From the NCBI GenBank assembly GCA_028713675.1, contig JAQTNV010000016.1:54-64053 (forward strand): a stretch of DNA of 64,000 bases, written 5' to 3'. Below the pieces are notes generated by a model, which was given only the letters and a program-made list of their open reading frames with translations, ran no database searches and was not told where the DNA came from. Both the position numbers and the translations under genes were made by a program. Positions 945 through 63,772 of the stretch are shown here, in pieces. The number at the start of each line of letters is the position of its first letter. Positions within the stretch are counted from its first letter, which is position 1. The stretch is from a bacterium (GTDB taxonomy: Bacteria > Desulfobacterota > JAPLJL01).

Positions 945-976
945 TCTCTGGTTTCGAGTTTCTGGTTTCGGGTTAG
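945..976. repeat. Degenerate heptamer array (TTTCGAG/TTTCTGG family)
   Basis: tctctggtttcgagtttctggtttcgggttag. Confidence 0.8.
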
Positions 977-1000
977 AAATCAGCCCAAAACACTTTTTGA

Positions 1001-1119
1001 GGGCCGATCGGAGATCGGCCCCTACATTTATATATAAATAAAAAAAAATAATTGATAGCATTTGTAGGGTGCGTTCCCCGAACGCACCTCCTTCGGGCCG
1101 ATCGGAGATCGGCCCCTAC
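1001..1119. repeat. Cluster of three GTAG-type REP hairpins
   Basis: GTAGGGGCCGATCTCCGATCGGCCC on the minus strand at 1001-1025 and 1095-1119; GTAGGGTGCGTTCCCCGAACGCACC on the plus strand at 1064-1088. Confidence 0.85.
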
Positions 1120-1142
1120 ATTAATATTATTTATTAGATCAA

Positions 1143-2666
1143 TCATTTGCGTTTGTAATATCCAATTATCGCTTCCGCCAGATCGGGAATCGTCGGTTTC
1201 CGGGCCACGATCCCCGCCCTGATTTTATTTTCTTTCAGAGCCCGGGCGGTCACCTCCCCAATCGCGGCCACGAGCTTGCCTTTCAACAGGAGCCGGGCTT
1301 TGGCCTTCCCCATGATCCCCAGAAAATTTATCACCGTGGAGGAACTGGTAAAGGTGATCCCGTCGAAATCGCCCCGGGTCACCGCTTTCTTCACTTCCGG
1401 ATCCACCCGCTTCGCCCGCGCGGTCCGATAACAGATCACATCGGTAACCAGCCCCCCCGCGGCCCGGAGGACCCGGGGAAGATCCGGGTCCGCCTGCTCC
1501 GAACGGGCCAGCAGGATCCGTTTGCCCCGGATGTTTTTCCCGCCCATGGCCCGGGGCAGTTCGCTGGAATAATACTTCCCGGGCATCACCTCGGCCTTGA
1601 TCCCCCACCAGCCCAGCTCTTCCCTGGTCGCCGGGCCGATCACGGCGATCTTTACCCCTTTCAGGTCCCGCAGATCCCGGTCCAGGTCCAGCATCCTGCC
1701 GATCAGGCCTCTCACCCCGTTGGGACTGGTCAAAACCAGCCAGTCAAAATCAGAAATTTTCCCGATCGCCCGGTCCAGACCCGTGTTCCGCCGCGGCCCC
1801 AGGATTTCAATCGTGGGAAACTCGAGCGTCCAGGCCCCGGACGCCTGGAGCGTCTCTGCCAGGGCGGAAGCCTGTTCCCGGGCCCTGGTAATGACAATCT
1901 TTTTCCCGAACAGGGGTTTTTTCTCAAACCAATTCATTTCTTCCCGCAGGCGGACCACTTCACCCACAATAATCACCGCCGGCGGTTTGATCCCGGCTTT
2001 CCGGACCCGCCGGGAGATATCCCGTAAATCCCCGGTCACCGTTCTTTGAAACGGGTAGGTTCCATTCTCGACAATCCCGACCGGGGTCCGGGGAGAAAGA
2101 CCGGCCCGGGCCAGGCTCCCGGTAATTTTATCCAGGTTGGCCATCCCCATCAGGAAGACCAGGGTGCCCTTTCCCGAGGCCAGCGCCTTCCAATTAATCC
2201 CGGACTCGGTTTTGGCGGGATCTTCCTGCCCGGTGATCACGGAAAAACTCGAAGCGAAATCCCGGTGGGTCAGGGGAATTCCGGCATAGGTGGGAGCGGC
2301 AATCGCCGAGGTAACCCCCGGGACCAGTTCGATCCGCACCCCCTTCCGGACCAACGCCAGGGCTTCCTCCGCCCCGCGGCCCAGGACGAACGGGTCTCCC
2401 CCCTTGAGCCGGGCCACGATCCTGCCGGCCCGGGCCTTCCGGATCAGGAGTTCATTGATTTCCTTTTGCTTGGGTGAGGGCTTGCCGCCCCGTTTTCCGA
2501 CGGGGATAAGCTCCGCCCCGGTTCTGACCAGGGATAGAATGGATCGGTCCATCAAGGCGTCGTAAAGAACCACGTCCGCCCTGCCCAGGATTCTCTCCGC
2601 TTTCCTGGTCAGGAGCCCGGGATCCCCGGGGCCCGCGCCGATTAAATATACCTTTCCCGCCGCCAT
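1143..2666 (-). CDS. cobA: Bifunctional uroporphyrinogen-III C-methyltransferase / uroporphyrinogen-III synthase (CobA-HemD)
   Basis: KVYLIGAGPGDPGLLT, RLKGGDPFVLGRGAEE, VPGVTSA; C-terminal HEM4 part (LFGKKIVITRAREQA, FTSSSTV). Start moved to MAAGKV at 2666 because the longer ORF N-terminus is repeat-derived. Confidence 0.93.
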   Translation of the reverse strand: MAAGKVYLIGAGPGDPGLLTRKAERILGRADVVLYDALMDRSILSLVRTGAELIPVGKRGGKPSPKQKEINELLIRKARAGRIVARLKGGDPFVLGRGAEEALALVRKGVRIELVPGVTSAIAAPTYAGIPLTHRDFASSFSVITGQEDPAKTESGINWKALASGKGTLVFLMGMANLDKITGSLARAGLSPRTPVGIVENGTYPFQRTVTGDLRDISRRVRKAGIKPPAVIIVGEVVRLREEMNWFEKKPLFGKKIVITRAREQASALAETLQASGAWTLEFPTIEILGPRRNTGLDRAIGKISDFDWLVLTSPNGVRGLIGRMLDLDRDLRDLKGVKIAVIGPATREELGWWGIKAEVMPGKYYSSELPRAMGGKNIRGKRILLARSEQADPDLPRVLRAAGGLVTDVICYRTARAKRVDPEVKKAVTRGDFDGITFTSSSTVINFLGIMGKAKARLLLKGKLVAAIGEVTARALKENKIRAGIVARKPTIPDLAEAIIGYYKRK

Positions 2667-2694
2667 AACTTTCGAATTATAGCAATAAAAGTTG

Positions 2695-2946
2695 CCGGTG
2701 TCGGTGTCGGTGTCAGTTTTATCGCATAGAGCAGATGGTAAAGGGCAAAGCGCAGAAAGCAAATCGCATCAGGCAGGGAGCATAGGGTTTAACCCGAAAC
2801 TAGAAATCTGGATTCCGGCTTTCGCCGGAATGACGAACTTTTCCGTTTGATTGTTACTTTTATTTACCCTTAAAACCTTGAACCCCTTTTGCAAGGCTTC
2901 CCTCGGCCACAATACCTCGGGATCTAATCGTAAAGCCTTGCCCTAC
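2695..2946. repeat. Composite intergenic repeat block (hexamer GGTGTC array, GAGCATA heptamers, GGGTTTAACCC junction, CTGGATTCC...GGAATGAC hairpin, 56-bp composite REP)
   Basis: ggtgtcggtgtcggtgtcagt near 2697-2717; ctggattccggctttcgccggaatgac 2808-2834; gcaaggcttccctcgg...agccttgccctac 2891-2946. Confidence 0.85.
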
Positions 2947-2972
2947 TTTCCGTCTTTTTTGGCTTTTATTCG

Positions 2973-4091: not shown

Positions 4092-4094
4092 TTT

Positions 4095-4216
4095 CGGTGT
4101 CGGTGTCTGTTTTATCGGGTCATAAGTGATAGGTCATAGGAAAACTTCCTGGATTCCGGCTTCCGCCGGAATGACAATCGTTTTTCCTTTGAACTTTGAC
4201 CTTTGATCTTTGAACT
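4095..4216. repeat. Intergenic hexamer/heptamer arrays plus CTGGATTCC...GGAATGAC hairpin
   Basis: ggtgtcggtgtc; gtcataagtgataggtcatag; ctggattccggcttccgccggaatgac; ctttgaactttgacctttgatctttgaact. Confidence 0.8.
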
Positions 4217-4219: not shown

Positions 4220-5380
4220 TTATATGAATTGCTCCCGGATCTTGTTGATCGCCTCGTCCAGGTCCTCGGGGCTGTGGATGTTCAATCGTTCGAGGAGATC
4301 TTCGATGGCCTGGCGTTTATCGGAATCGTCAAGATCATCCAGATTGCGGAAAACCGAGCCCCCCACCGCCCCCAGTCTCCTTCCCACCCGGAAAACCAGT
4401 TTATCATCCGGGTCGAGCCCCAGGTAGCGCTCCAGGGCCGCGAGCATCCGGGGCTTTTCCTCCGGCAGTTTGCCCTCCACCTCCTCGAGCAGATTCATGA
4501 TGTGGTCGCTGGTCACCCGCGCATGGCATTCAAGCCTGGAAATAAAGGTATGAATCTCCCGGACTACGTCGTCCTCATCGAGCGTGCCGAATTCCCCGCT
4601 CTCCAGTTTTTCCCCCAACCGGGTGCCGGGCGAAACGACCAGGGACCTGATCCTGATAAAATGCGGATCTATTTCGTTCAGGACCGCGGCCGTCGCCTCG
4701 GCGTGCTCCCGGGACCATTTCTTCCCCCCCAGGCCCGGCATCACGTATTCCGAGAGCTCGATCCCGGACCCCCGGATCATCTTCCCACCCTTGATCTCAT
4801 CTTCCGCGGTGCATCCCTTGTCAATGTATTCGAGCAGCGGGTCATATCCGGTTTCGAGCCCGATGTGGATCCGGTCCAGGCCGGCGCTTTTCAATTCCCG
4901 GTATTCCTCCGGTTTTTTCCGGGCGGCGGTATGCGAGCGGGCGTAGCTCGTCACCCGCTTGAGATCGGGAAAGGTCTGGCGGAGGAATTTCAGGACCTCG
5001 ACCAGCTCCGGCGTTCTCATGATCAAAGTATTGGCATCCTGCAGAAAAGCTGATTCCCCCCCGAAATAAAGCCAGAGGGCCACCTGGCGGTAGGAATCGT
5101 TGGGCGCGTTCCGGTAGGCCAGGGCCGCGGCCTCCTGAGGACGGTCTCCGAGTCCCCCCTTCCAGGACATCGCCCGGATTTCGTCGGCGATTTCCCTGGC
5201 GGTCAGGATGTCTTTCTTTATCTCCTCCACGGTCCGGAGGCTGAATTTCTCACCCTTGTAGACCGGGCAGAAATGACAGCGGTTCCACGGGCAGTTTCGC
5301 GTGGCCCGGATCAGGAGGCTCTGGGCCTCGCTCGGCGGCCTGATCGGCCCGACTTCAAAATTCAGATCGGAACTTGGCAC
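4220..5380 (-). CDS. Radical SAM protein, function unknown
   Basis: GPIRPPSEAQSLLIRATRNCPWNRCHFC (CxxxCxxC), HIGLETG. Likely GTG start at 5380 behind TGGAGG. Confidence 0.88.
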   Translation of the reverse strand: MPSSDLNFEVGPIRPPSEAQSLLIRATRNCPWNRCHFCPVYKGEKFSLRTVEEIKKDILTAREIADEIRAMSWKGGLGDRPQEAAALAYRNAPNDSYRQVALWLYFGGESAFLQDANTLIMRTPELVEVLKFLRQTFPDLKRVTSYARSHTAARKKPEEYRELKSAGLDRIHIGLETGYDPLLEYIDKGCTAEDEIKGGKMIRGSGIELSEYVMPGLGGKKWSREHAEATAAVLNEIDPHFIRIRSLVVSPGTRLGEKLESGEFGTLDEDDVVREIHTFISRLECHARVTSDHIMNLLEEVEGKLPEEKPRMLAALERYLGLDPDDKLVFRVGRRLGAVGGSVFRNLDDLDDSDKRQAIEDLLERLNIHSPEDLDEAINKIREQFI

Positions 5381-5461
5381 TGGTATCCTCCAGGGTAATT
5401 CTACTACCCCGGCGGTTTTCTCCGCCATCCCACTCCCCGGCACTGACACTAACACCGACAC

Positions 5462-5490
5462 CCTGGCCGGCTTCGCCCGTCTCGGGCAGG
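5462..5490 (+). mobile_element. 29-bp CCTGGCCG...CTCGGGCAGG micro-element inserted in a GACACY hexamer array
   Basis: C[cctggccg gcttcgcccgt ctcgggcagg]C; the same ends recur at 41157, 60089 and 63684. Confidence 0.65.
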
Positions 5491-5547
5491 CTGACACTAT
5501 TTTCCCAACCCTTCCGATCCATACTTTTATCCTTTAAACTTATTTCA

Positions 5548-5838: not shown

Positions 5839-5894
5839 TTTTTTCTTTTTCTTCCTTTCACCCTTGAGCTTTCAACTTTGACCTTTTTTTAATC

Positions 5895-6938
5895 ATGCCC
5901 GGTTACGAAAAAGTAATGAACCAGGCCGCGCGGCGGCTGACCCCAATTTCGGTATTAATTGAGCTGACGTACCGATGTAATCTTTCCTGCCGGCATTGCT
6001 ATATACCTCCCGGCCAACTCCATCCCAAATCCCCTTCCCAAAAATCCTCACTCACTCTAAAGGAATGGGCAAATATTTTTACCCAGCTGGCCGAATCCGG
6101 AACGCTGTTTCTGACTTTTACCGGGGGAGAAACCCTGCTCTATCCGAAATTCCCGGAACTGCTGAAAATCGCCCGGGAACAACGCTTCACCTTTCGTGTT
6201 TTTACCAACGGAACCCTGATTACGAGGGAAACCGTAAAAAAACTTTCCCGTCTGCACCCTTTCGAGGTTGAAATCAGTGTCTACGCCGCCGATCCCCGCC
6301 TTCACGACCTGGTCACCGGAAGGAAAGGCTCGTTCGAGCTCACCTGGAACGCTATCAGGATGCTCAAGAATGAGGGCATCAAGGTCAATTTAAAAACCCC
6401 GGTCATGACGCTTAATCAAAAAGAGGTCAAGCCACTGCGGGATTTGGCCCGCGACCTGGACCTTCCGATTCAATTTTCCTATGTCCTCTCCCCCCGTGAC
6501 GACGGTAACTCCGCTCCTTTGAAGCTTCAGCTCAAAACCCGGGAAATCCGGGCCTGTCTGTCGCGGGAATACGATTCCGAATCCTGCCCGGACCTGGCCC
6601 CCAATCCCGGACGCAAACCGGGTGACCCGATCTGCTCGGCCGGGAGAAATTCCCTGGCGATTTCCCCCGCAGGCAAGGTTTATCCCTGCGTTCAGATCCG
6701 CCGGGAAGCCGGCGATTTGAGAAAAGAGAAATTCGCGGCAATCTGGAAGAAATCCCCGGTGCTCCGGGAAATCAGGGGAATGACCATGGCGCAGGTTCCG
6801 GAATGCCTTTCCTGCCGTGACCTGGGATTCTGCTCTTTGTGTCCGGGAATGTCCCTGATTTTATCGGACGAAGTCGAGGAACCTTACTGGCCGTCATGCG
6901 AACTGGCCCGGGCGCGGGCAAAGGGAGGGAAAAAATAA
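5895..6938 (+). CDS. Radical SAM/SPASM domain maturase
   Basis: ELTYRCNLSCRHCY, FTGGE, FTNGT; SPASM cysteines CSAGRNSLAISPAGKVYPC...CLSCRDLGFCSLCPG...C. Confidence 0.9.
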   Translation: MPGYEKVMNQAARRLTPISVLIELTYRCNLSCRHCYIPPGQLHPKSPSQKSSLTLKEWANIFTQLAESGTLFLTFTGGETLLYPKFPELLKIAREQRFTFRVFTNGTLITRETVKKLSRLHPFEVEISVYAADPRLHDLVTGRKGSFELTWNAIRMLKNEGIKVNLKTPVMTLNQKEVKPLRDLARDLDLPIQFSYVLSPRDDGNSAPLKLQLKTREIRACLSREYDSESCPDLAPNPGRKPGDPICSAGRNSLAISPAGKVYPCVQIRREAGDLRKEKFAAIWKKSPVLREIRGMTMAQVPECLSCRDLGFCSLCPGMSLILSDEVEEPYWPSCELARARAKGGKK

Positions 6939-11912: not shown

Positions 11913-12109
11913 CTTCGCCCGGCAAAGCAGGCGGATTGCTCCGCCTTGTTAAGGGCTACGTCGGGCTCGCAGAGCTCGTAAGCAGTAGCCGGAAACCGGA
12001 TACCGGTTAATTCAAACAAAATAAAAAGCTAAGTTCTTGATTTTTCTTCTTCTGACCGGTTACCTGCCCGTTTTTTGACTTTCACTCGTCAATCGTCAAT
12101 CTAAAATCG

Positions 12110-13264
12110 TCAATCTTTGAGTACATCCCTCGCGATGATCATCCGCTGGATCTCGCTGGTCCCTTCCACGATCCGGAACATCCGGGCATCCCGGTAAAGG
12201 TGCTCGATCGGCGCCTCTTTTATGTATCCGGTCCCGCCGTGGATCTGCAGAGACCGGTCGGTAACCCGGCAGAGCATCTCGCTGGCGAAAACCTTGGTCA
12301 TCGAGCACAGGGCATCCACCTTCTGGCCGGCGTCAAAACACGAGGCGGCGTCGATAAGCATGCACTTCGATGCGTAGATATCGGTGGCGCTGTCGGCCAG
12401 CATCCACTGAATCGCCTGGTTCTCGGCGATCGGCTTCCCGAACTGGACGCGGATCTTGGCGTAATCCCGCGCCAGCTTGAGTGCCCGCTCGGCAAACCCG
12501 ATCATCGAGGCCGAAAGGGTGAGCCGTCCCTCATTCAGGCATTTCATCGCCGTCCGGAAACCCTGCCCCACCATCTTGGGCCCCCCGATGATATTTCCTT
12601 CCGGTACCCGGCAATTTTCGAAGATAACCTCGGCCGGCTTGCTTCCGACGTTTCCCATCGCCTTGAATATCTTCCCGATGGTCAGGCCGGGGGTGCCCTT
12701 TTCCACGATAAAAGCCGTGATCCCTCCCCGGGCACGCTTCTCCTTATCGGTTAAGGCCAGGACGGTGAAAACCGAGGCCCGGGGGGCGTTGGTGATGAAA
12801 TACTTGGTCCCGTTGATCACCCAGTCATTCCCATTTTTCACCGCGGTGGTGGAAATGGCCGCGGCATCGCTTCCGGCCCCCGGCTCGGTCAGGGCGAAAC
12901 TGGCCATTTTTTCACCCGAGGCCAGGGAAGGAAGGTATTTTTTCTTCTGCTCCTCGGTTCCATCAAAAAGGATACCCTTGCAGCCGATCCCGTTATTGGT
13001 CGTGATCTGGGCGCGGACCGCGGCGTTGGTTTTGGAGAGTTCCATCAGGATCAGGCAGTAATCCAGGATTGAAAGGCCAAGGCCTCCGTATTCGGTCGGG
13101 GTGGTAACCCCGAAAAGCCCCAGCTGGCAAAGGCCTTTATAAATGTTTTCAGGGATCTCGCCTTTTTCCTCGATCTCCATTTCGACCGGGTAACATTCCT
13201 TTTCAACGAACTTGCGGACGGTTTCCAGAAACTGTTTCAGCTCGGCAGATGGCTCAAAAAACAT
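12110..13264 (-). CDS. Acyl-CoA dehydrogenase
   Basis: ASFALTEPGAGSDA, INGTKYFITNA, RVQFGKPIAENQAIQ, QIHGGTGY, RIVEGTSEIQR. Confidence 0.96.
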   Translation of the reverse strand: MFFEPSAELKQFLETVRKFVEKECYPVEMEIEEKGEIPENIYKGLCQLGLFGVTTPTEYGGLGLSILDYCLILMELSKTNAAVRAQITTNNGIGCKGILFDGTEEQKKKYLPSLASGEKMASFALTEPGAGSDAAAISTTAVKNGNDWVINGTKYFITNAPRASVFTVLALTDKEKRARGGITAFIVEKGTPGLTIGKIFKAMGNVGSKPAEVIFENCRVPEGNIIGGPKMVGQGFRTAMKCLNEGRLTLSASMIGFAERALKLARDYAKIRVQFGKPIAENQAIQWMLADSATDIYASKCMLIDAASCFDAGQKVDALCSMTKVFASEMLCRVTDRSLQIHGGTGYIKEAPIEHLYRDARMFRIVEGTSEIQRMIIARDVLKD

Positions 13265-13285
13265 GATTCCCCCCTTTTAAAATTT

Positions 13286-13446
13286 CGATTCTAGTTTCGA
13301 GTTTCTAGTTTGACGTTAAACCATTTTTTTCCGATTATTTCAACTAGAAACCAGAAAACCCAAACTCAAAACTTATTATATTTTCTGTTCTCTGGTCACT
13401 GGTTTTGATTTTTAACTCGAAACTAGAGACTGAAAACTCGAAACTG
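13286..13446. repeat. Inverted heptamer arrays (TTTCGAG... followed by ...AAACTAG/AAACTCG)
   Basis: ctagtttcgagtttctagttt, then aactagaaaccagaaaacccaaactcaaaact, then taactcgaaactagagactgaaaactcgaaact. Confidence 0.85.
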
Positions 13447-17125: not shown

Positions 17126-17240
17126 TTGTCAGTTATCAGTTTTTAGTTATTAACTGTCATCTATCAGCTTCCAACCAAATAACGGACTTTGAAGTTTGAA
17201 CTTTAAACCTTGAACCTTGAACTTTGAACGCTGAACTTTG
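17126..17240. repeat. Heptamer arrays (TTATCAG; CTTTGAA/CCTTGAA)
   Basis: gtcagttatcagtttttagttat; ctttgaagtttgaactttaaaccttgaaccttgaactttgaacgctgaactttg. Confidence 0.85.
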
Positions 17241-48531: not shown

Positions 48532-48633
48532 TTGGTTTCTTTGGTTTCTGGTTTCTGGTTTCTTGTTAAATACCTTGGGTATCTTTTTCTTTTTTTTCTA
48601 ACTCGAAACTCGAAACTACAAACTCGAAACTAT

Positions 48634-49137: not shown

Positions 49138-49227
49138 TTCCCACCCCCAATCTGGTTTATCTGTTTTTTTTAGTTTCTTTAGTTTCTTTGGTTTTCATTC
49201 CGCAATCCGCATTCCGCAATTTATATG

Positions 49228-49343
49228 AGCAATGCTTGTGCCAGGTATAAATAGACTGGGTAAAAACTGTCACCGACGGTGATAATGTTTGATGGAGCCC
49301 TGACATCCGGGTCACAATTTACCCAGGGAGTCACAATCGACCC
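49228..49343 (-). promoter_or_regulatory. Sigma-54 promoter with tandem enhancer sites
   Basis: TGGCACAAGCATTGCT at 49243-49228; GGGTC-ACAATT-TACCC at 49309-49324 and GAGTC-ACAATC-GACCC at 49328-49343. Confidence 0.82.
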
Positions 49344-49349
49344 ATGCAA

Positions 49350-52250: not shown

Positions 52251-52306
52251 CCTGATAAAAATTTCTTTAATTACAGAGTATTTATTATATGTTTAAGGTA
52301 AATGCT

Positions 52307-52322
52307 TGCAAATATCATTCCA
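52307..52322 (-). promoter_or_regulatory. Possible sigma-54 promoter
   Basis: TGGAATGATATTTGCA, correct GG/GC spacing, 57 bp upstream of the kinase start; no enhancer motif seen. Confidence 0.4.
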
Positions 52323-52701
52323 TTCAGTATCGATTATATATAACATATTAATTTTTATAAATAAATTATATATATTTATTTATATTATAAATCATTTAAT
52401 TAATAAAAAAAAACAACAGAAATTCCTGAATAATTCCATATAATTATCAATGATTTCAATATGTTATATTTATATTGATGAAATTTTCAACAGGTATAGC
52501 AAAATCATATAGGATTAGATGTTAAATTCGGATTAGGGGCCGATTGAGGAGTGAAAAATAGGTAGCCGGCAGCCAATGACAAGTAGCCGGCAAACAAAGG
52601 AAATCAGGATAATGATTGGAACAGATCTGATTTTAGAGAGAATGGGGCTTATTATTTCTTTTCGTAGTGCGACTTTTTAGGGTAGATCCTTTGAACTCTA
52701 T

Positions 52702-54051: not shown

Positions 54052-54255
54052 ATGAATGCTCGTTTCGAGTTTCGGGTTTCGAGTTTCGAGTTCAGATTAA
54101 ACCCAATAATATTCAAATAACAGAGGCCATGAGTTCGAAACATCGTTTGTAATTTATTAGTCATATGAATGCTCGTCTCGAGTTTCGAGTTTCGAGTTTC
54201 GAGTTCAGATTAAACCCAAAAATAATCAAAAAACAGAAGTTATGAGTACGAAACC
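54049..54255. repeat. 113-bp-period tandem duplication containing a heptamer array and the start-codon context
   Basis: catatgaatgctcg...gagttcagattaaaccca...gag..cgaaac occurs at 54049 and at 54162. Confidence 0.9.
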
Positions 54256-54645
54256 TCATTTGTACTTGTTACCTTTTATTTCAGATCTCCGCAAATAATT
54301 CATCAAGCCGCCAGCCAATTTCCCCACTTCAGTTACCTTAACAAATAGCTGGTTAAAAGAATCCTGATTCAGATAACCCTGATCAAGGGCAACATAGAGT
54401 TGGCTTTTAACTTCACCGCTAGAACCTTTCGAAACGGAGAGAAATTGGATGAATTCCTTGGTCCCACCTCTCTCGAAACCTTCGGCTATGTTTGAAGTAA
54501 TTGAAACACAAGCTTTTCTCAATTGCTCTCGCAAACCGATATCTCTGTTGAATTTGCCTATATTTGACAAGGCGTAAATTTCATTGGTAAGTTCCCGACC
54601 TTTCTGCCAGGCTTCAATATCTTCGAAACATTTAAAGGTCGCCAT
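54256..54645 (-). CDS. Four helix bundle protein (23S rRNA IVS-protein / Avd-like family)
   Basis: FEDIEAWQKGREL, LREQLRKACVSITSNIAEGFERGGTKEFIQFLSVSKGSSGEVKSQL. Confidence 0.93.
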   Translation of the reverse strand: MATFKCFEDIEAWQKGRELTNEIYALSNIGKFNRDIGLREQLRKACVSITSNIAEGFERGGTKEFIQFLSVSKGSSGEVKSQLYVALDQGYLNQDSFNQLFVKVTEVGKLAGGLMNYLRRSEIKGNKYK

Positions 54646-54669
54646 CTTCTTTCTCCCTTCTTCCTTATT

Positions 54670-54767
54670 AGTTTCGGGTTTGTAGTTTCTAGTTTCTGGT
54701 TAAAAACTTTAAAACATTTATCATCTCTTTTATTTAACTCGAAACTCGAAACCCGAAACTCGAAACT
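54670..54767. repeat. Inverted heptamer arrays upstream of the four-helix-bundle gene
   Basis: agtttcgggtttgtagtttctagtttctggtt, AT-rich spacer, aactcgaaactcgaaacccgaaactcgaaact. Confidence 0.9.
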
Positions 54768-57700
54768 ATTTTATCGGTAGCTCCACGATAAACTTCGCTC
54801 CTTTTCCCGGTTCTGACTCCACCCGGATGTCGCCGCCGTGATCCAGGATGATCCGCCGGGAGATCGCAAGGCCCATTCCGTAGCTCCCCTTTTTGGTGGT
54901 GAAGAAAATCTCGAATATCTTATCCTTCATCTCCTTCGGAATCCCCGGGCCCATGTCCTTCATCGAGACAATCAGCGTTTTTCTCTTTTCGTCGGCCCTG
55001 GCTTCGATCTCGATGACATCCCCCTTCCCGGAAACCTCGATGGCGTTCTGCAAAAGGTTGATAAACACCTGGATCATCTCGCCCTTTTCCACCATCACCG
55101 GAGGCAAGTCCGGCGGCATCTTCTTTTCGACCTTTATTCCATTGACCTTCATTAATCCCGAATTCAGGGAAGCAACCTCATCCACGACTTCCCGCATGTC
55201 TACGGGGGCGAAAGCAATCTCGTTCAGAGCGCGATGGCGGCCGTAATCCAGAAGCTGTCTGACCAGGTAATCCATCCGGATGGTTTCCCTCAAAATAATT
55301 TCCAGGGTTTCTTTCTGAGCGCCCCCCAGTTTCAGGTGGTCGTGCAGGATCTCAATCCCGCTGGAAATCGCGAAAAGCGGGTTTTTGATCTCGTGAGCGA
55401 TATTACCGGCGATTTCCCCGATGGCGGCCATTCTCTCGGATTCCTTCAACCGTTTTTGGAGCTTTTTCTCCTCAGTGATATCGCGGGTCACATGGATCAC
55501 CCCATAACACTTATTTGCCGCGTTGAACATCGGGGTAGTCGTAATCAGGTAATCTCTCTGCAATCTCTCCGAGCGGACCATGTAGTTGCAGGATTTTCCC
55601 TCGGAAATACACCGCGATTGTCGGCAATATTCCGGGGGCGCGTCGGTCTTATGAATAAGGCGAAAGCATTGCTGTCCGATGATCTCGGGAAAGGAAAGCC
55701 CCAAAAAATCCGCCAGGGCCTGGTTGGCGCGGAGGATCCGGTAATTCAGGTCCTGCACCATGATCATATCGGGAATAGAGTCGAAAGTGATTCTCCAGGC
55801 GGTGGAGGCGTTTTTGATCATTTCCTCGGCTTGGATCTGTTCGGTAACGTCATGCAGGATCATCCCCAGTCCATCTCCTACCTTGAAAATGTCTATACAA
55901 ACGTATCTAAATTCCCCCATTGATACAGATATTTTCTGCCTCGACCGGTGAAAAGGCTTTCCCGTTTTCAATACATCCAGGTATTTGTCGAGCATATCGG
56001 AATCCCGAATCGTGGGAGAAACTTCGGTTAATTTTTTCCCGATCGCTTCCCGGCGGGAAAAGCGTTCGGCCAGCTCCGGGGATAGTGCCCGGTTGAAATC
56101 GACCAGGTTCAAATCCTGATCGAAAATATAGAAAAGGTCCGTCGCGGCGCAGGAAAAACGGCTCCATCGTTCCGTGATCACCTTTTTTTCCTCCTGAAGC
56201 CTTTTTAGCTCGGTGATGTCGACCACCGCGCCTTCAATGTGTTCCGTCCCCGGTATCATCTTGACCGAATAATTGACCCAGATTGGCGAGCCGTCGGCCT
56301 TTACCCCCCTGGCCTCGTAACCCGTGATCTCGCCGCTTTCTTTCAGTTTCCTGAGCAATCGTCTCTGATCGTCCAGATCGTTAAAATGCCGGGCCACCGA
56401 ATAATCCCGCAGGCATTCTTCCCGGCTTTTATAGCCGAGCATTCCGGCGAACCGCTCGTTGCATTCGATCACCTGCCCGTCGGTAATCCGGGTCCGGTAC
56501 AAGCCCACCTGTGCGTTATGGAAAAAGTTTCGATACTTCTCTTCGCTCAACCTTAGCTTATCTTCCGCCTGCTTAAGATCGGTGATGTCCTGCATAGTGC
56601 CAACAATCCGGTATGGGTGGCTTGATTGGTTACGGTATGCGACTGCGTGCTGGTTAATATGCTTGATCGTACCATCCGGCAGAAGAAGCCGAAACTGGAT
56701 TTCGGCATGATCTTCTTTTTCTAAAAGCAGATTGATAAAAGAATTGTTTTTATTCCGATCATCTGGATGAATCAAAGCCACGATACCATCGAAGGTGAGT
56801 GGTATTTCCCGGCCTAACCCGAACATTTGATATACCGTCTCAGACCAAGTCAATTTGTTGCCTTCAACATCCCAATCCCAGTTCCCGAGTTTGGCGATAT
56901 CCTGGGCCTGGACCAATTTATTTTCGTTCTCCTTTAGTATTTCCTCCGCCCGCTTGCGCTCGGTGATGTCGCGGGAAAAAACAAAAAGTCGGCCGCCGCT
57001 GATATCCATGAAATTGACGCTGATTTCGAAATCTATAATTTTTCCGTCTTTATGGCGGAGTTTGGTTTCAAAACGATCCCCTCCCGTTGCGATGATTTTT
57101 CTGATGCGAGCGCCGGTTTCTTCCGGTTTTTCCTCAACCACGATATCCGAAATCTTCATTCTCAGAAGTTCGCTACGGCTGTAACCAAGCATGCGGGAGC
57201 AGGCGTCGTTCGCCTCTTGAATATTTCCCTGCAGATCGTCAATCCAAAATCCGTCTATCGAAGTGTCAAGAATGGCCTTATATATCTCCTCGCTTTGGCG
57301 GAGACTATTTTCGGCCCGTTTCCGCTCGCCGATATCCCGGGCCAGGCTCAAAACCGATACCACCCGGCCGTCTTCAAAAATCGGTACCGCGTTTATTTCC
57401 ATTTCAATGATTTTGCCCTGGGAGTTTCGGGTCTTCAGATTCAGGCCATAAATCGGATGGCCCTGGCGCAGTTCATCAGCGAGGCGAATCAACTCTTCCT
57501 GGTTGTCTCCGGCAAAGTAATCCAGGTAACTCTTCTTTTTGAGCTCCTCGAGCGACACACCCAGAATTTTGAGCACCGCGGGATTCGCATCCAGAAAATT
57601 CCCATTCACATCATTGATGCAAATGAAATCCGGGCTGTTGTTGAAAATAAAGCGATATCTTTCCTCGCTTAGCCTCAGTCTCTCGGCAATGTTCTTTTGC

Positions 57701-57840
57701 TCAGTGATGTTTAATTTTAGTGCGCTTAAATCCCGGGGGGGCTTCTTCATTTTTACGGCCGTTGACTTCACCAAACGCGGCTGCCTACGAGGCCTGCCTT
57801 TCTTTATTTTTTTTCTGTTTTTTTTCTTTTTTTCCGGCAT
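54766..57840 (-). CDS. Cytoplasmic multi-PAS histidine kinase
   Basis: About 6 PAS domains; NIAHEIKNPL; NLLQNAIE; GMGLAI. Start MPEKKKK at 57840. Confidence 0.93.
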   Translation of the reverse strand: MPEKKKKNRKKIKKGRPRRQPRLVKSTAVKMKKPPRDLSALKLNITEQKNIAERLRLSEERYRFIFNNSPDFICINDVNGNFLDANPAVLKILGVSLEELKKKSYLDYFAGDNQEELIRLADELRQGHPIYGLNLKTRNSQGKIIEMEINAVPIFEDGRVVSVLSLARDIGERKRAENSLRQSEEIYKAILDTSIDGFWIDDLQGNIQEANDACSRMLGYSRSELLRMKISDIVVEEKPEETGARIRKIIATGGDRFETKLRHKDGKIIDFEISVNFMDISGGRLFVFSRDITERKRAEEILKENENKLVQAQDIAKLGNWDWDVEGNKLTWSETVYQMFGLGREIPLTFDGIVALIHPDDRNKNNSFINLLLEKEDHAEIQFRLLLPDGTIKHINQHAVAYRNQSSHPYRIVGTMQDITDLKQAEDKLRLSEEKYRNFFHNAQVGLYRTRITDGQVIECNERFAGMLGYKSREECLRDYSVARHFNDLDDQRRLLRKLKESGEITGYEARGVKADGSPIWVNYSVKMIPGTEHIEGAVVDITELKRLQEEKKVITERWSRFSCAATDLFYIFDQDLNLVDFNRALSPELAERFSRREAIGKKLTEVSPTIRDSDMLDKYLDVLKTGKPFHRSRQKISVSMGEFRYVCIDIFKVGDGLGMILHDVTEQIQAEEMIKNASTAWRITFDSIPDMIMVQDLNYRILRANQALADFLGLSFPEIIGQQCFRLIHKTDAPPEYCRQSRCISEGKSCNYMVRSERLQRDYLITTTPMFNAANKCYGVIHVTRDITEEKKLQKRLKESERMAAIGEIAGNIAHEIKNPLFAISSGIEILHDHLKLGGAQKETLEIILRETIRMDYLVRQLLDYGRHRALNEIAFAPVDMREVVDEVASLNSGLMKVNGIKVEKKMPPDLPPVMVEKGEMIQVFINLLQNAIEVSGKGDVIEIEARADEKRKTLIVSMKDMGPGIPKEMKDKIFEIFFTTKKGSYGMGLAISRRIILDHGGDIRVESEPGKGAKFIVELPIK

Positions 57841-57859
57841 TGCTCTCTCTCTAAATTTC

Positions 57860-58190
57860 TCTGGTCTATGAATGGCATAGGGCAAAGGGCATGGCGCAAA
57901 GAGCAGGGAGCATGGCGCAGGGAGCATGGCGCATATGATTTAACCCCAAACCAGAAACCTGGATTCCTGCTTTCCTTCGACCATACTCATGACAAGTCGC
58001 AGGAATAACTTTATAATTTTTCATTCGTCAGATTTTTGGGGCTCACTCGTCATTCGTCAATCGTCACTTCTTCTTCGGTTTTCATTCGTCATTCGTCAAT
58101 TCTTTTTTGTTTTTCATTCCGCAATCTACAATCCGCAATCCGCAATTCTTTCTAACTCGAAACTCGAAACTAGAGACTCGAAACTAGTAT
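57860..58190. repeat. Intergenic repeat block, paralogous to 46305-46420
   Basis: gggagcatggcgca arrays, ctggattcctgcttTC[57975-57996]TCgcagg, tcgtcat/tcgtcaa, tccgcaa and aaactcg arrays. Confidence 0.85.
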
Positions 58191-58277
58191 TACCCTGCCG
58201 ATTTCATAAAACTGGCAGATATAGGTGCCACAGGGAATATTGTCGACGATGCTTATCCCGAATTTTCTCATTTTCAT
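58170..58277 (-). pseudogene. Truncated N-terminus of a MEDS sensory domain
   Basis: MKMRKFGISIVDNIPCGTYICQFYE resembles the MEDS start R.SGI..IG..PWGTHFCQFY, then runs into a heptamer array and stops. Confidence 0.6.
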
Positions 58278-58350
58278 TTTCCAGAACTGATTGTAGTTGA
58301 TTATTTTATTCATTGTATTCCGAATAGATAATTTATCAATTAAAAAAAAG

Positions 58351-58376
58351 GGGAGCCGGCTGGGCGGCTCCCCTAC
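58351..58376 (-). repeat. GTAG-type REP hairpin
   Basis: GGGAGCCG GCTGGG CGGCTCCC followed by CTAC. Confidence 0.75.
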
Positions 58377-59784: not shown

Positions 59785-59928
59785 TGCATGAACCGTGCCA
59801 CGGTTTGAAAATACCGCGATATCTTTGGTTTTACCGTCGGTGCGGATGCAATATTGGTACCCTGTTCAGGTCCAATCCCGCGGGTTGATTTTGTGGTTCT
59901 TTTTGACCCTGAGGGGTGGAACAAACCG
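59785..59928 (-). promoter_or_regulatory. Sigma-54 promoter with enhancer site
   Basis: TGGCACGGTTCATGCA at 59800-59785; TGGTT-CTTTTT-GACCC at 59894-59909, with a weaker site 19 bp further on. Confidence 0.72.
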
Positions 59929-60003
59929 GGGCCAATTAAATTGCGGATTTTTGATTGCGGATTGCGGATTGAAATTCAAAGCCATGGAACCGGGGGTCCG
60001 AGG
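59883..60003 (+). repeat. 121-bp direct repeat, copy 1
   Basis: Near-identical to 62623-62743. Confidence 0.92.
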
Positions 60004-60076
60004 GAAACCTGCGTGTTTCAGGTTTAAAGTTTCAAGTCAAAAGAAAAGGAGCGGCATTTGACGGCCGCCCGATAAA

Positions 60077-60132: not shown

Positions 60133-60203
60133 TCCAGTCTCTGATTTTGATTTTGAACCCGAAACCCGAAACTAGAAACCCGAAACCATTGAAAGCAACG
60201 CTT

Positions 60204-61199
60204 TCAATGAACTGGTTTGGGAGCTGCCGCCGGCTTCCGACAAGTCGAGCAAACAAAATTGCCCCGCAGCTCGCGGTTCCCGTTTTCCCCCTTAACAGTC
60301 AGGTCCAGAACCATGGGTTTTCCGCAATCGGTGCATCGGTAACCCTGGTCGATACCCAGGGTCTGGGCCAAGCTGGGGGCATCGAGCACGGTTTCGATGA
60401 TTTCGATCCGGAAATGCCGCTCCGGGGTCTTCTTCAATAAGGTCTGGACCTTCGAAATCATCTCATCAAGGTTGGCTTTTCCCTTCACCAGGAAATCATT
60501 GGCCCCCATGAGCATGGCTTTTTTAACCTCTTCGGGCTGGTCATGAGCCGAAACCACGAGGATCGGGATCCTGGTGGTGAGTGAATCCGCCCTGATCTTC
60601 CAGATCGCCTCGTAGCCTTTCATCTTGGGAAGCATCAGATCCATGATGATGAGATCGGGTTTATGCTTTTTCAGGATTTCCATCCCTTCCTCCCCATCGG
60701 CGGCGATCCGGACGATAAAATTTCCCTGTTCCAGAACTTTCCGGTAGAGCTCCGAAAAAAAACTGTCGTCTTCGAAAACCAGGATTTCCGGGGTTTTCTT
60801 TTCTTCCGATTCCTCCACTCCCCGGCCCTGGTAGAGAAGCTCCTTGATCTTGGCGACCACTTCATTCAGCCTCGATTTCCCCTTCACCAGGTAGGCATCG
60901 GCTCCCATACCCTTTACTTTCTGGATGTCCTCAAACTGGTCCCGGGCCGAGAGAACCAGGATCGGCACCCGGGCGAACCGCGCGTCCGCCCGGATTCGAT
61001 GAATGGCTTCCACCCCGTTCATCCCGGGCATCATCAGATCCATGAGAATCAGGTCGGGCCGGGACGTTTCCAGGGACTGCAGACACTCTTCCCCTCCGGT
61101 AACCATCCGTACCTCTAATTTTTCCATATCAAATTTCCTCTGATAAATTTCGCGGGTATACTGGTTATCTTCCACCATCAGGATTCTCGCCATTTTCAT
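60204..61199 (-). CDS. Tandem REC-REC response regulator with C-terminal CxxC...CxxC zinc-ribbon-like motif
   Basis: LMDLMMP and IMDLMLP phosphoacceptors; CTDC...CSTC. Confidence 0.9.
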   Translation of the reverse strand: MKMARILMVEDNQYTREIYQRKFDMEKLEVRMVTGGEECLQSLETSRPDLILMDLMMPGMNGVEAIHRIRADARFARVPILVLSARDQFEDIQKVKGMGADAYLVKGKSRLNEVVAKIKELLYQGRGVEESEEKKTPEILVFEDDSFFSELYRKVLEQGNFIVRIAADGEEGMEILKKHKPDLIIMDLMLPKMKGYEAIWKIRADSLTTRIPILVVSAHDQPEEVKKAMLMGANDFLVKGKANLDEMISKVQTLLKKTPERHFRIEIIETVLDAPSLAQTLGIDQGYRCTDCGKPMVLDLTVKGENGNRELRGNFVCSTCRKPAAAPKPVH

Positions 61200-62524: not shown

Positions 62525-62668
62525 AGCAAGAAGAGGGCCAAGGAGCGGAAATAACGCGGAATATTTGTATTCGCCGTCGGCGCTGCAGAAACATTGGTTC
62601 CTCATCCGGGTACGATTCTTCTGGTTGATTTTGTGGTTCTTTTTGACCCTGAGGGATGAAATATACCG
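62525..62668 (-). promoter_or_regulatory. Sigma-54 promoter with enhancer site
   Basis: TGGCCCTCTTCTTGCT at 62540-62525; TGGTT-CTTTTT-GACCC at 62634-62649, the same 94-bp spacing as at 59.8 kb. Confidence 0.72.
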
Positions 62669-62743
62669 GGGCTAATTAAATTGCGGATTTTTGATTGCGG
62701 ATTGCGGATTGAAAGTCAAAGCCATGGAACCGGGGGGCCGAGG
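62623..62743 (+). repeat. 121-bp direct repeat, copy 2
   Basis: Near-identical to 59883-60003. Confidence 0.92.
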
Positions 62744-62773
62744 TTAGCCTCAGGCTTAAGACTGCATAATCAA

Positions 62774-62829
62774 GTAGGGCAAGGCTTCTCGATCAGATCC
62801 CGAAGCATTGTGGCCGAGGGAAGCCTTGC
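62774..62829 (+). repeat. 56-bp composite GTAG REP
   Basis: gtagggcaaggcttctcgatcagatcccgaagcattgtggccgagggaagccttgc; reverse complement of the 2891-2946 family. Confidence 0.85.
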
Positions 62830-62927
62830 AAATCAACAAAAATGGTCGAAGGAAGGCTGCGGCCACCTTCGGACCCTAGGCCCCCTGGGACCCTTTTTAC
62901 TGGTCCAGGTATGCTATATTTGGGGCT

Positions 62928-63602
62928 ATGGAGCAGGTAATTCAGGACATCGCCTTGATGCTGGTGCCGATGCTGTTCGCGGTTTCCTTTCACGAAGCCG
63001 CCCACGGGTATGTCGCCGACCGTCTGGGCGACCCCACCGCCCGCCTGGCCGGACGCCTGACCCTGAACCCTTTCAAACACCTGGACCTGGTGGGAACCAT
63101 CGTATTTGTCGTAACCCGCATGATCGGCTGGGCCAAGCCCGTCCCGGTCAATCCTTTCAATTTGCGCGATCCCAAGCGGGACATGATGTGGGTTTCGCTG
63201 GCCGGCCCGGGATCCAACCTGGTCCTCGCCATTATCTCCGCCATGCTGCTCCGCCTGCTGGCCTGGTATGATCCCTCCCTCCCTCTCCAAACCCAGTTTC
63301 CCAAGTTCGCTTCCAGTTCGTCTTTTTTCCTGGTTCCCCTTTTCCTGATGATTCAAATCAGCGTCGTTATGAATATCGCCCTGGCGGTTTTTAACTGCCT
63401 GCCCATTCCCCCGCTCGACGGGAGCAAGATTCTCATGGGTCTCCTGCCCCTCGATAAAGCCCAGGCCTTCGCCCGGATCGAGCCTTACGGTTTTATCATC
63501 CTGCTCGGTCTTATTATATTTCCAGGTCTTCTAGGGATTCCTAGCATAGTAGATATTTTAATTAGCCCACTCATTAATTTAGTGATCAGATTGTTACTTT
63601 AG
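62928..63602 (+). CDS. Site-2 protease (M50 family)
   Basis: HEAAH, AGPGSN, FNCLPIPPLDG. Confidence 0.95.
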   Translation: MEQVIQDIALMLVPMLFAVSFHEAAHGYVADRLGDPTARLAGRLTLNPFKHLDLVGTIVFVVTRMIGWAKPVPVNPFNLRDPKRDMMWVSLAGPGSNLVLAIISAMLLRLLAWYDPSLPLQTQFPKFASSSSFFLVPLFLMIQISVVMNIALAVFNCLPIPPLDGSKILMGLLPLDKAQAFARIEPYGFIILLGLIIFPGLLGIPSIVDILISPLINLVIRLLL

Positions 63603-63606
63603 CGAC

Positions 63607-63723
63607 AGTTTCGAGTTTCTAGTTTCGGGTTTCGGGTTAAACCCTATGCTCTTTACGCTCTGCTCTGACACCGACACCGGCACCCTGGCCGGCACAAGTC
63701 GTCAGCTCGGGCAGGCTGACACT
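63607..63723. repeat. Heptamer/hexamer arrays with a 32-bp CCTG...CAGG micro-element (63684-63715)
   Basis: tttcgagtttctagtttcgggtttcGGGTTAAACCCtatgctc; gacaccgacaccggcaC[cctggccg gcacaagtcgtcag ctcgggcagg]Ctgacact. Confidence 0.8.
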
Positions 63724-63772
63724 AAAATAGGTTTCAAGTTCAAACCTTTTCGTTTATAATCTGCCGTTAATT

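Follow-up and report, generated by a model that had tools for sequence, protein, structure and literature searches.

Which process has filled the gene junctions of an uncultured bacterium with short tandem repeats, and why do these repeats follow the direction of the neighbouring genes? The question is raised by a stretch of 64,000 nucleotides (contig JAQTNV010000016.1 of assembly GCA_028713675.1, hereafter the window), for which an earlier note, made from the letters alone, had described degenerate arrays with a 7-nt period between genes, often arranged as inverted pairs, and had proposed a dedicated mechanism that writes or propagates them. In the analysis reported here, the 7-nt period, the position and the orientation of the arrays have been found to be non-random and tied to gene direction. 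With a probability of about 0.6, we attribute them to a lineage-specific bloom of slippage-prone heptamer arrays, which would have been copied from one transcribed spacer to another under a filter of what is tolerated beside stops and starts, and which would also have supplied the stem material of a cassette around a gene of the PF05635 family.

The arrays have been counted by a period scan (sliding frame of 21 nt, strict threshold of at least 18 of 21 self-matches), with 30 dinucleotide-preserving shuffles of the window as the null model. Period 7 has yielded 23 segments, period 9 eight and period 6 two; periods 4, 5, 8 and 10-12 have given no segment in the window, and the shuffles none at any period. 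Tandem Repeats Finder has returned 106 rows in the 64 kb, most of them with a period of 7 or its multiples 14 and 21. At least one array is present in about 24 of the roughly 42 gene junctions, which agrees with the more than 20 junctions claimed before, and all unit families that had been named have been recovered by Tandem Repeats Finder at or near their places: AACTCGA/AAACTAG, TCCGCAA, TCGTCAA, GCATAGG/GAGCATA, CTTTGAA, TCAGTTA (= TTATCAG) and GTCATAG (4118-4140), together with a TTGTCTC array of 13 copies at 37326-37417. The same holds for the 9-bp and 6-bp arrays, found as GAATCATCT x6.1 (34090-34144), TCTGGTTTC x6.6 (31355-31413) and CGGTGT (2696-2714), and for the three cited inverted pairs, which are present at 13283-13311 with 13414-13446, 54669-54701 with 54736-54767, and 34051-34076 with 34367-34388. 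The arrays conform to the definition of tandem units (5-11 nt, at least three copies head-to-tail, far above chance), and at least eight unit families coexist in the window, of which the main units AGTTTCG, GATTGCG, ATTGACG, GTTCAAA and AAGAGAC contain no GGG.

Essentially no array lies within true coding sequence, and the arrays are limited to non-coding DNA. Of the 23 period-7 segments, 20 are located where no open reading frame (ORF) has been called, which is 15% of the window, and the other three fall within the first codons of ORFs that a mechanical caller has over-extended upstream; the real starts of CheA (MELDLNKF), of a methyl-accepting chemotaxis protein (MCP, MDALNEII) and of a response-regulator kinase (RR-HisKA, MLVDDEEL) come right after an array. 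Arrays equally common inside genes and free of bias in position and orientation, which would have contradicted the earlier description, have accordingly not been found. Repeats of coding origin have been rejected on array anatomy and on the true starts downstream of arrays. As the same arrays recur in independent assemblies of related genomes (L126, L176) and Logan contigs of two landfill runs match without differences across them, they are not assembly artefacts, an explanation rejected on array anatomy as well. The Logan contigs have shown breaks and depth spikes at the arrays, and no clean length polymorphism has been seen there in the contigs of the landfill runs. In one of these contigs (runs X1, X2), 49107 is linked directly to 50209, and the shorter side matches over 215 letters, so that a 1.1-kb array-filled spacer is skipped or replaced; the joint may derive from a co-occurring strain or relative with another spacer. 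A CRISPR array has been rejected, since the units are 6-9 nt long and directly abut, instead of forming 23-50 nt repeats with unique spacers. No Rfam family at gathering scores and no rRNA match have been found in the window.

When all spacers are displayed in the sense of the flanking genes, a common grammar emerges. Right after stops, often sharing the TAG of the stop codon, stand (AGTTTCG)n, (GATTGCG)n, (ATTGACG)n, (GTTCAAA)n or (GCAAAGG)n, and right before starts stand the complements or other C-rich, A-rich units such as CGAAACT, AGAAACC, AGAGACC, CTATGCC and CAATCCG. The fixed position and orientation asserted in the earlier note have been borne out by the counts: for arrays within 60 nt of a stop, G exceeds C in sense at 13:3, and within 60 nt of a start at 2:9 (Fisher p = 0.002). 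In co-directional spacers the GC skew is +0.15 in the first half versus -0.06 in the second (18 of 21 spacers, p = 0.002). The rule also holds for plus-strand genes (63607-63644, 5854-5886), and since the array at 63607-63644 again stands in gene sense, the polarity follows the gene and not the DNA strand. Within the convergent spacer 33931-34394, (ATTGACG)n is found in its own sense for each of the two genes.

Such a polarity invites the reading that the arrays are protein- or ribosome-binding leaders and guards. The pre-start arrays, being C-rich, A-rich and G-poor, would then act as unstructured Shine-Dalgarno-independent leaders (S1/Csp type) or as Rho loading sites, and the G-rich arrays after stops would present C-rich RNA to antisense transcripts only. 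The C-rich strand does consistently point into the adjacent ORF, true starts without a Shine-Dalgarno sequence directly follow arrays at the MCP (~39530) and RR-HisKA (~42110) genes, and the same observation has led to the same proposal for TAACTGA in Beggiatoaceae (PMC4679880). Many unrelated units serve the same position, however, and a given array at a given gene is not conserved between close relatives; we regard these putative leaders and guards as quite improbable.

Longer spacers have the form of ordered mosaics, in which G-rich blocks are followed by a switch motif (GGGTTAAACCC, GTTAACC) and then by C-rich blocks, and in which non-repeat linkers such as AATGAAAACC recur. Interleaved with the arrays are GTAG-tagged hairpins resembling repetitive extragenic palindromes (REPs; TGTAGGGGCCGATC..., GTAGGGCAAGGCTTCAGCCTTGC, GTAGCCGCAGCCTTTAGGCTGCG) as well as ATTCCGG-N-CCGGAAT hairpins. 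The REP-like sites lie at 1013-1120, 2825-2946, 4166-4190, 18060-18150, 38080-38160, 42259-42285, 46470-46560 and 50077-50130, and the number of such hairpins at orthologous junctions differs between the window and the relative L121. A further interspersed non-coding element of about 130 nt combines a short CAATCCG array with the motif TCAGGGTCAAAAAGAACCACAAAATCAACC and has been located at ~59880-60010, ~62620-62750 and, inverted, ~31505-31620, with two near-identical copies upstream of unrelated genes. Ahead of (CGAAACT)n, a 25-nt leader, ATGA(A/G)CG(C/T)TCCTAACGAAATGAACC, occurs at 42146-42170 and 48507-48531, where it precedes the genes of two distinct response-regulator kinases. Since 46636-48531 has no in-frame start downstream of the array, the array may encode an N-terminal extension.

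How the arrays change over time has been followed at orthologous junctions of relatives, which have been ranked by nucleotide identity (L126/L176, 90-96%; L121/L175, GCA_026388655.1, 82-88%; L123-L125, ~72%). The density of period-7 arrays per 10 kb is 6.9 in the window, 5.7 in L121, 3.0 in L126 and 0 in L123-L125, and array-free alleles therefore exist. Three kinds of change have been observed at the junctions. The first is copy-number drift with the family kept, as between the radical-SAM and iron-containing alcohol dehydrogenase (Fe-ADH) genes (4 copies in the window versus 9 in L121) and between the enoyl-CoA hydratase and His-phosphatase genes (7.9 versus ~4.5). The second is the replacement of both arms by another family: the spacer between the LUD and acyl-CoA dehydrogenase genes has AGTTTCG...CGAAACT arms in the window and L126, and ATTGACG...CGTCAAT arms in L121, where it also carries a GCATAGC array and a hairpin and where the adjoining ribosome-binding site is conserved. 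The third is gain or loss of a module, namely (AGTTTCG)n-GTTAACC-(AGAGACN)n, which is present in L126 and absent from the window between the acyl-CoA dehydrogenase and hydrolase genes, and whose composite is also found at the non-homologous window junction 37291-37431. The comparison proposed in the earlier note has thus recovered both array-free alleles (L123-L125) and modular gain and loss (the acyl-CoA dehydrogenase/hydrolase module); only gradual slippage from one seed is not what the junctions show, as both arms have been swapped in one case and a whole module gained or lost in another.

Purely local, independent replication slippage at each junction, free of copying and selection, would account for the copy-number differences at conserved junctions, and it agrees with the fact that any heptamer forms arrays in public data (viral contigs) and with the attribution of the heptamer excess to polymerase slippage (cited in PMC4692102). 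It does not fit identical composite modules with the same non-repeat linkers at non-homologous junctions, the concerted replacement of both arms, or the strongly gene-anchored polarity; this reading is disfavoured by the sharing of modules, and we hold it to be very improbable indeed. The modular gain and loss between genomes of 90-96% identity speaks for copying between sites on top of slippage, and the alignments suggest that the arrays spread as modules and not by local slippage alone.

The modules also appear to reach beyond spacers. A 43-codon ORF at 58194-58313 aligns, at 62% identity, with residues 1-40 of the MEDS-PAS kinase that L175 has in intact form. The rest of the MEDS domain is absent from the window, where a 320-bp array mosaic (57874-58185) has taken its place. 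As the remnant is directly abutted by the mosaic, modules can replace coding sequence, and judging from this comparison the kinase 54766-57927 has probably lost its sensor domain.

The AAACTCG unit has also been followed across phyla. The exact 21-mer (AAACTCG)3 has been found at more than 120 genome loci, in Acidobacteriota, Planctomycetota, Verrucomicrobiota, Bacteroidota, Chloroflexota, Desulfobacterota (including Desulfonema magnum) and Gammaproteobacteria. The 838 kb around these loci hold 330 arrays of period 7, 19 of period 8 and 21 of period 9, and at 120 loci from many phyla the arrays just after stops have G>C at 66:26 (p = 4e-5). Composite modules with common linkers recur, and the array flanks at these 120 loci have no conserved ends, as bears on an element of the miniature inverted-repeat transposable element (MITE) or REPIN type. 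Viral contigs contain AAACTCGx3 at 9 loci and two control heptamers of the same composition at 33 and 6, the controls having been run in viral contigs and not in the genome collection. AAACTCG has accordingly been rejected as a special cross-phylum element: with no conserved flanks and with controls in viral contigs that are similar or commoner, its presence across phyla reflects a general heptamer phenomenon.

One junction departs from the others in its architecture. The gene 54256-54645 encodes a protein of 129 aa, which belongs to PF05635 (23S rRNA intervening-sequence protein, four-helix bundle; E = 2.9e-32). The neighbours of this gene are a PAS histidine kinase gene and a sigma-54 activator gene; it does not lie in 23S or 16S rRNA. 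The array at the kinase stop (54736-54766) is the perfect 31-bp complement of that before the activator start (54062-54092), a GG variant unit included, with a duplex energy of -56 kcal/mol versus -29 for the nearer arm; an inner 25-bp helix (54653-54681 with 54212-54239) closes on the PF05635 ORF. By analogy, 54062-54767 has the architecture of ORF-bearing 23S rRNA intervening sequences, placed here inside an operon, and RNase III cleavage is the likely fate of its stem. The readings as RNase III-type stem and as mobile module, suggested in the earlier note, suit this single case well. At the same junction, L176 has the same PF05635 gene and arms, with a single copy in place of the 113-bp duplication at the activator start region (spacer of 94 bp versus 204 bp); L175 has an unrelated PF05635 gene (12% identity) with ATTGACG/CGTCAAT arms; and in L178 the kinase and activator genes overlap, with neither cassette nor arrays.

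For a wider view, 80 PF05635 loci have been collected from metagenomes by protein pattern alone (four-sequence alignment), 64 of them with both flanks; the sample covers only the subfamily close to the gene of the window. In the 250 nt that adjoin the gene upstream and downstream, the density of period-7 arrays rises to 22-24 per 10 kb, compared with 0-3 per 10 kb at greater distance, and the arrays have the familiar polarity (upstream G>C 30:8, downstream G<C 32:9). Inverted tandem arms (score at least 15), made of many different units, have been found at 31 of the 64 loci; among the genes of array-rich loci, arrays bracket 6 of the 8 that belong to PF05635 and 18 of the 785 others (p = 1e-8). 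PF05635 proteins that are 84-86% identical occur in unrelated upstream contexts with the same arm family. Other spacers of the PF05635 loci also bear arrays (6/25 vs 42/87, p = 0.04), and the link is therefore in part just one to array-rich genomes.

From these loci it may be proposed that the arrays are arms, or leftover arms, of co-oriented PF05635 hairpin cassettes, whose ORF loss leaves solo arms or ORF-less pairs. A G-rich 5' arm would abut the upstream stop and a C-rich 3' arm the downstream start, so that polarity would be inherited, and the PF05635 protein might bind or propagate the arrays. The peak in array density, the polarity, the inverted and bracketing arms and the shared arm families all agree with the proposal, as do the one junction seen with type-A arms, with type-B arms or as an empty site, and the window arms that are perfect over 31 bp including the variant unit. 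It is opposed by the single PF05635 gene in 64 kb against about 24 array-bearing junctions, by a search with hidden Markov models (HMM) in the six frames of the window, L121 and L126, which has found no decayed PF05635 remnants in ORF-less loops, and by the partial origin of the link in array-rich genomes; no enzyme, target duplication or movement has been observed, with no systematic search for target-site duplications made, and the sample represents only the subfamily near the gene of the window. We consider this origin of the arrays unlikely. Likewise doubtful, and to the same degree, is its extension that heptamer arrays and PF05635 genes form one genetic system, in which cassettes in operon spacers and rRNA helices would be excised by RNase III, leaving or seeding ORF-less arms, with the protein as array-binding partner; if it were true, much of the gene-anchored heptanucleotide repeat DNA of bacteria, the polarity in the window included, would be the footprint of that system. 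No paper linking the PF05635 family to heptamer arrays outside rRNA has been found in the literature.

Two further observations concern PF05635 genes in other genomes. A relative with an 81%-identical sigma-54 activator (contigs of protein P0127) has PF05635 genes on both sides of the activator, and the spacer downstream of the L176 activator has AGTTTCG...CGAAACT arms without an ORF, which enclose a hairpin mosaic of 600 nt; the two may represent a filled site opposite a site with ORF-less arms. In L208 and L210, two 79%-identical PF05635 genes occur in unrelated contexts. Instead of inverted arrays, a 50-nt sequence (AAGACCCGCGAC...GGGACCCGTGACCTGTTTAGG) stands on either side of them in direct orientation, a different kind of cassette boundary.

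Regarding the long imperfect mRNA stems that the inverted pairs had been thought to form, folding of the spacers has given a mixed answer. The spacers do form more stable folds than their shuffles (mean z = -2.0; best -4 to -5.7), and two of the inverted-pair regions singled out before reach z = -4.1 (13283-13446) and -3.6 (54669-54767). There is, however, no sense-strand bias, and variant units are unmatched between the arms of ORF-less pairs, the PF05635 gene being the exception. Sense and antisense folds are the more stable in 10 of 20 spacers each, with a mean difference of -0.1 kcal/mol, and so nothing points to RNA-specific structure; selection on the sense-strand RNA (G-U vs A-C, and sense vs antisense minimum free energy) has been rejected for lack of asymmetry. 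Given a dominant family and a fixed polarity, inverted pairs within one spacer are fairly expected, and most of them therefore look like by-products. A role as intrinsic terminators has been rejected, as arrays and terminators do not coincide: the only strong minus-strand terminators in 41-61 kb (58349-58374, 60049-60070) lie outside arrays, and the total is 37 versus 31 +/- 6.6 in shuffles. With no intrinsic terminators at the arrays, the spacers are probably co-transcribed.

These data bear on the view of the inverted pairs as functional RNA elements, where RNase III cutting or 3'-end protection would uncouple the stability and translation of neighbouring cistrons. The better-than-shuffled folding, the arms placed exactly between a stop and the next ribosome-binding site, the probable co-transcription across terminator-free arrays and the analogous 28-bp Coxiella stem cleaved by RNase III (PMC4990558) are in its favour. 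Equal folding of sense and antisense, variant units that are uncompensated between arms (the PF05635 gene excepted), pairs that are replaced or absent in close relatives, and the many junctions with one arm only or with arms of different families are not what such elements would predict, and we rate a general function of this kind as rather unlikely.

Taking this evidence together, the bloom of heptamer arrays may be pictured as follows. Transcribed spacers would have been colonised by fast-evolving arrays, mainly of 7-nt units with some of 9, 8 and 6 nt, whose length would change by replication slippage. Copying between junctions would proceed by ectopic recombination or gene conversion among arrays, or by riding on hairpin cassettes, and orientation would be filtered by selection on what is tolerated beside a stop or a ribosome-binding site. 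Wherever a G-rich and a C-rich array of one family meet in one spacer, a long imperfect transcript stem would arise, as a by-product at most junctions; at 54062-54767 the arrays form the 31-bp stem and inner helix around the PF05635 gene, with RNase III cleavage likely. Of the dedicated mechanism proposed earlier, the propagation of modules has been retained; no array-writing enzyme has been found, and a dedicated one is neither needed nor seen. Several points weigh against this picture. Slippage by itself leaves unexplained the preference for 7 nt, the recurrence of families at many junctions and the joint replacement of both arms, and the copying mechanism is putative. Polarity could reflect function (RNA stems, Rho loading, translation leaders) and not a filter, and the RNase III step at the PF05635 stem has been assumed from its likeness to intervening sequences.

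Gene-anchored polarity has been extended by the window to several coexisting families that are incapable of forming G-quadruplexes. The lineage moreover offers a natural series: one relative lacks arrays, other families dominate in a sister genome, and strains that are almost identical differ in whole modules. In this series the arrays are seen to move as modules and to supply the stems of intervening-sequence-like cassettes in ordinary operons. Two old puzzles, why the units are 7-mers and what rRNA intervening sequences and S23p genes are, become testable on the same junctions. Should the arrays be only tolerated junk, their value would be one for annotation, as arrays lead ORF callers to over-extend several genes and cause contigs to break during assembly. 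The individual features are collected in Table 1.

Table 1. Arrays, mosaics and associated features along the window.
Feature	Position	Strand	Remark
(CGAAACC/CGAAACT)n, gene sense	943-974	-	directly upstream of the start of radical-SAM gene 2-937
Hexamer (ACACCG)3, sense	2696-2714	-	5' leader of cobA/hemD; word also at 4094-4106 before Fe-ADH start
Composite CCAG-(ATTTCTA GTTTCGG)-GTTAAACCC-(TATGCTC CCTGCC)	2772-2811	-	
(CCTATGA/CCTATCA)n, GTCATAG family	4118-4140	-	before Fe-ADH start
(GTTCAAAG-type TCAAAGN)x4.3, sense	4187-4216	-	4 nt past stop of radical-SAM gene 4220-5497
(CTTTCAA/CTTTGAC)n, sense	5854-5886	+	before start of gene 5895-6938
(ATTGACG)n, sense	12082-12115	-	after acyl-CoA dehydrogenase stop; same family at orthologous site in L121, L126
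(AAACTAG/AAACTCG)n, sense	13283-13311	-	25 nt before acyl-CoA dehydrogenase start; 3' arm of pair
(AGTTTCG)n, sense	13414-13446	-	right after stop of LUD gene 13449-14072; 5' arm of pair
(AACTGAT/TAACTGA)n	17129-17150	-	before His-phosphatase start
(GTTCAAA)x7.9, sense	17186-17240	-	after enoyl-CoA hydratase stop
350-bp mosaic, divergent intergenic region	31181-31535	.	9-mers GTCTATCTA, heptamers GCATAAG/AGAGCAA, 9-mers GAGTCCATT and TCTGGTTTC x6.6, AACTCGA, AGAGACT, TCCGCAA
(ATTGACG)n, sense of gene 33298-33930	34051-34076	+	one arm of convergent pair
Perfect 9-mer array (GAATCATCT)x6.1	34090-34144	.	
(ATTGACG)n, sense of gene 34395-35522	34367-34388	-	6 nt after its stop; other convergent arm
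Mosaic, sense: (AGTTTCG)n - GGGTTAAACCC - (CTATGCC)n - (AGAGACC)n	35553-35640	-	
Mosaic, sense: (AGTTTCG)n overlapping cheW stop - GTTAACC - (AGAGACC)4(AAGAGAC)10 - GGTTTCGAATTAAACCC - (CTATGCT/CTTTGCC)n - (AGAGACC)n - cheA start	37257-37453	-	
8-mer array (GAACCCTN)n	37988-38028	-	before cheW start
(GCAAAGG/GCATAGN)n, sense	38133-38196	-	overlaps MCP stop codon
(CAATCCG)n, sense	39533-39568	-	ends at true MCP start codon; no Shine-Dalgarno sequence
(GATTGCG)n + AATGAAAACC	39697-39715	-	after stop of sigma-54 activator 39722-41302
Pair	41318-41468	-	(AGTTTCG)n at stop of 41466-42170; second AGTTTCG block 41384-41402; (AGAAACC/CGAAACT)n 41318-41349 before next start
Mosaic, sense: (GATTGCG)n-AATGAAAACC-(AGAAACC)n-GTAG hairpin-AGTTTCGG-GTTAAACC-9-mers (AAATAAACC)n-leader ATGAACGCTCCTAACGAAATGAACC-(CGAAACT)n-start	42118-42327	-	
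Mosaic, sense: (GATTGCG)n after stop of 46636-48531, 8-mers GGGTTCCA, REP-like hairpins, CCAGGTTTCTGGTTTTGGGGTAAACCC-(TATGCGCC/CTGCTCC)n	46304-46631	-	
Pair: (AGTTTCG)n after stop of 48634-49137, (AGAAACC)n, leader ATGAGCGTTCCTAACGAAATGAACC, (CGAAACY)n	48458-48631	-	fold z = -5.7
1-kb spacer	49165-50161	-	five GATTGCG/CAATCCG arrays, (CGAAACY)x8.6 at 49356-49422, 9-mers 49165-49194, REP-like hairpins
Possible 81-aa ORF, C-terminal hydrophobic helix	49641-49886		middle segment (SQSAIRNPHSAIG) encoded by CAATCCG array; no Pfam match
113-bp tandem duplication, 1.9 copies, 89% identity	54048-54264	-	doubles 3' arm (second copy 54178-54205) and activator start region
(CGAAACT)n, 3' arm	54062-54092	-	perfect 31-bp complement of 54736-54766; ends 10 nt before sigma-54 activator start
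Inner helix, 3' half	54212-54239	-	closes on four-helix-bundle ORF
PF05635 gene, 129 aa	54256-54645	-	E = 2.9e-32
(AGAAACT/CGAAACT)n + ribosome-binding region	54653-54701	-	inner helix 5' half
(AGTTTCG)x4.6	54736-54767	-	begins in TAG stop of PAS kinase 54766-57927; 5' arm of 31-bp stem
Mosaic, sense: (AGTTTCG)n-(GATTGCG)n-AATGAAAA-(TGACGAA/ATTGACG)n-REP-like hairpin-CCAGGTTTCTGGTTTGGGGTTAAATCA-(TATGCGCC/CTTTGCC)n	57874-58185	-	
MEDS-domain kinase remnant, first 40 codons	58194-58313	-	closed by TAG from first array unit
(CAATCCG)n within ~130-nt interspersed element	59940-59971	-	second copy 62680-62711
(GGTTTCG)n, sense	60156-60187	-	25 nt after stop of 60204-61199
(AGTTTCG)n-GGGTTAAACCC, sense	63607-63644	+	4 nt after stop of gene 62928-63602

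The genes between the arrays include a cobA/hemD fusion, radical-SAM enzymes, many sigma-54 activators and PAS kinases, a chemotaxis cluster, glyQ and a C25 peptidase. The closest named homologues are delta-proteobacterial, and among public runs the sequence occurs only in landfill metagenomes (DNA) and in no RNA run; the host looks like an uncultured landfill bacterium with delta-proteobacterial (Thermodesulfobacteriota-like) gene content. An AT-rich spacer of 450 bp at 52251-52701 carries no arrays, has several sigma-70-like promoter matches and a TTTATATATA repeat, and probably represents a genuine promoter region, in contrast to the intercistronic spacers that are filled with arrays.

Under the name of short tandemly repeated repetitive (STRR) sequences, heptanucleotide arrays have been described since 1990, and they are over-represented in many bacteria. 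The STRR heptanucleotides of heterocystous cyanobacteria, reportedly described by Mazel and co-workers in 1990 (cited in PMC4692102), are said to form several unrelated, highly repeated intergenic families per genome. Several unrelated intergenic heptamer families are thus common to STRR and the window, whereas the unit sequences and the phylum differ; to our knowledge, neither gene-anchored polarity nor module turnover has been reported for STRR. Ordered mosaics of short modules are also formed in enterobacterial spacers by bacterial interspersed mosaic elements (BIME/REP) and in the REPIN-RAYT system, and are transcribed with the flanking genes, REPs being single palindromes that are mobilised by a Y1 transposase. 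The spacers of the window are likewise ordered mosaics with interleaved GTAG-tagged REP-like hairpins, but they consist of tandem 7-mers with no known enzyme.

In the 23S rRNA intervening sequences of Coxiella burnetii and Leptospira, a long terminal stem carries a PF05635/S23p gene in its loop; the Coxiella stem of 28 bp is cut by RNase III, and a selfish or formerly mobile nature has been proposed for the element (Warrier et al. 2016, PMC4990558). The window shares the PF05635 ORF in a stem loop, with 31 perfect base pairs and an inner helix against 28 bp in Coxiella, but the arms of its cassette are heptamer arrays of the common family of the genome, and it occupies one junction only. The TAACTGA direct repeats of marine Beggiatoaceae and some Cyanobacteria and Bacteroidetes stand a few nt before starts, often without a canonical ribosome-binding site, with one dominating unit and inverted pairs in 1/170 (MacGregor 2015, PMC4679880). 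In the window, TAACTGA is not the dominant unit and has one two-copy instance (17129-17142); the units are many, arrays stand behind stops and also ahead of starts, and inverted pairs are frequent.

The closest resemblance has been found with the GGGAATC arrays of Xanthomonas and the GGGGA(T/C)T arrays of Nostoc PCC 7120, where hundreds of intergenic 7-nt arrays, mostly of ~4 units, lie between co-oriented ORFs (Rehm et al. 2015, PMC4692102). In the 50 bp that follow a stop, or across the stop itself, these arrays have their G-rich strand in sense, and in the 50 bp ahead of a start they have it in antisense; 70-75 inverted pairs occur per genome, most arrays are transcribed, and length and sequence vary between close species; the heptamer excess among bacterial simple repeats was already known and attributed to polymerase slippage (cited in PMC4692102). 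Intergenic location, gene-anchored polarity, inverted pairs and rapid variation are all shared by the arrays of the window, which differ in their at least eight unit families, in mosaics with conserved linkers, in a delta-proteobacterium-like host and in main units that are free of G3-4 tracts and cannot form G-quadruplexes. Since the same polarity and inverted pairs have been published for Xanthomonas and Nostoc, the arrays belong to a known class, and the window is a very dense case of heptanucleotide long simple-sequence repeats (LSSR) of the STRR and Xanthomonas type.

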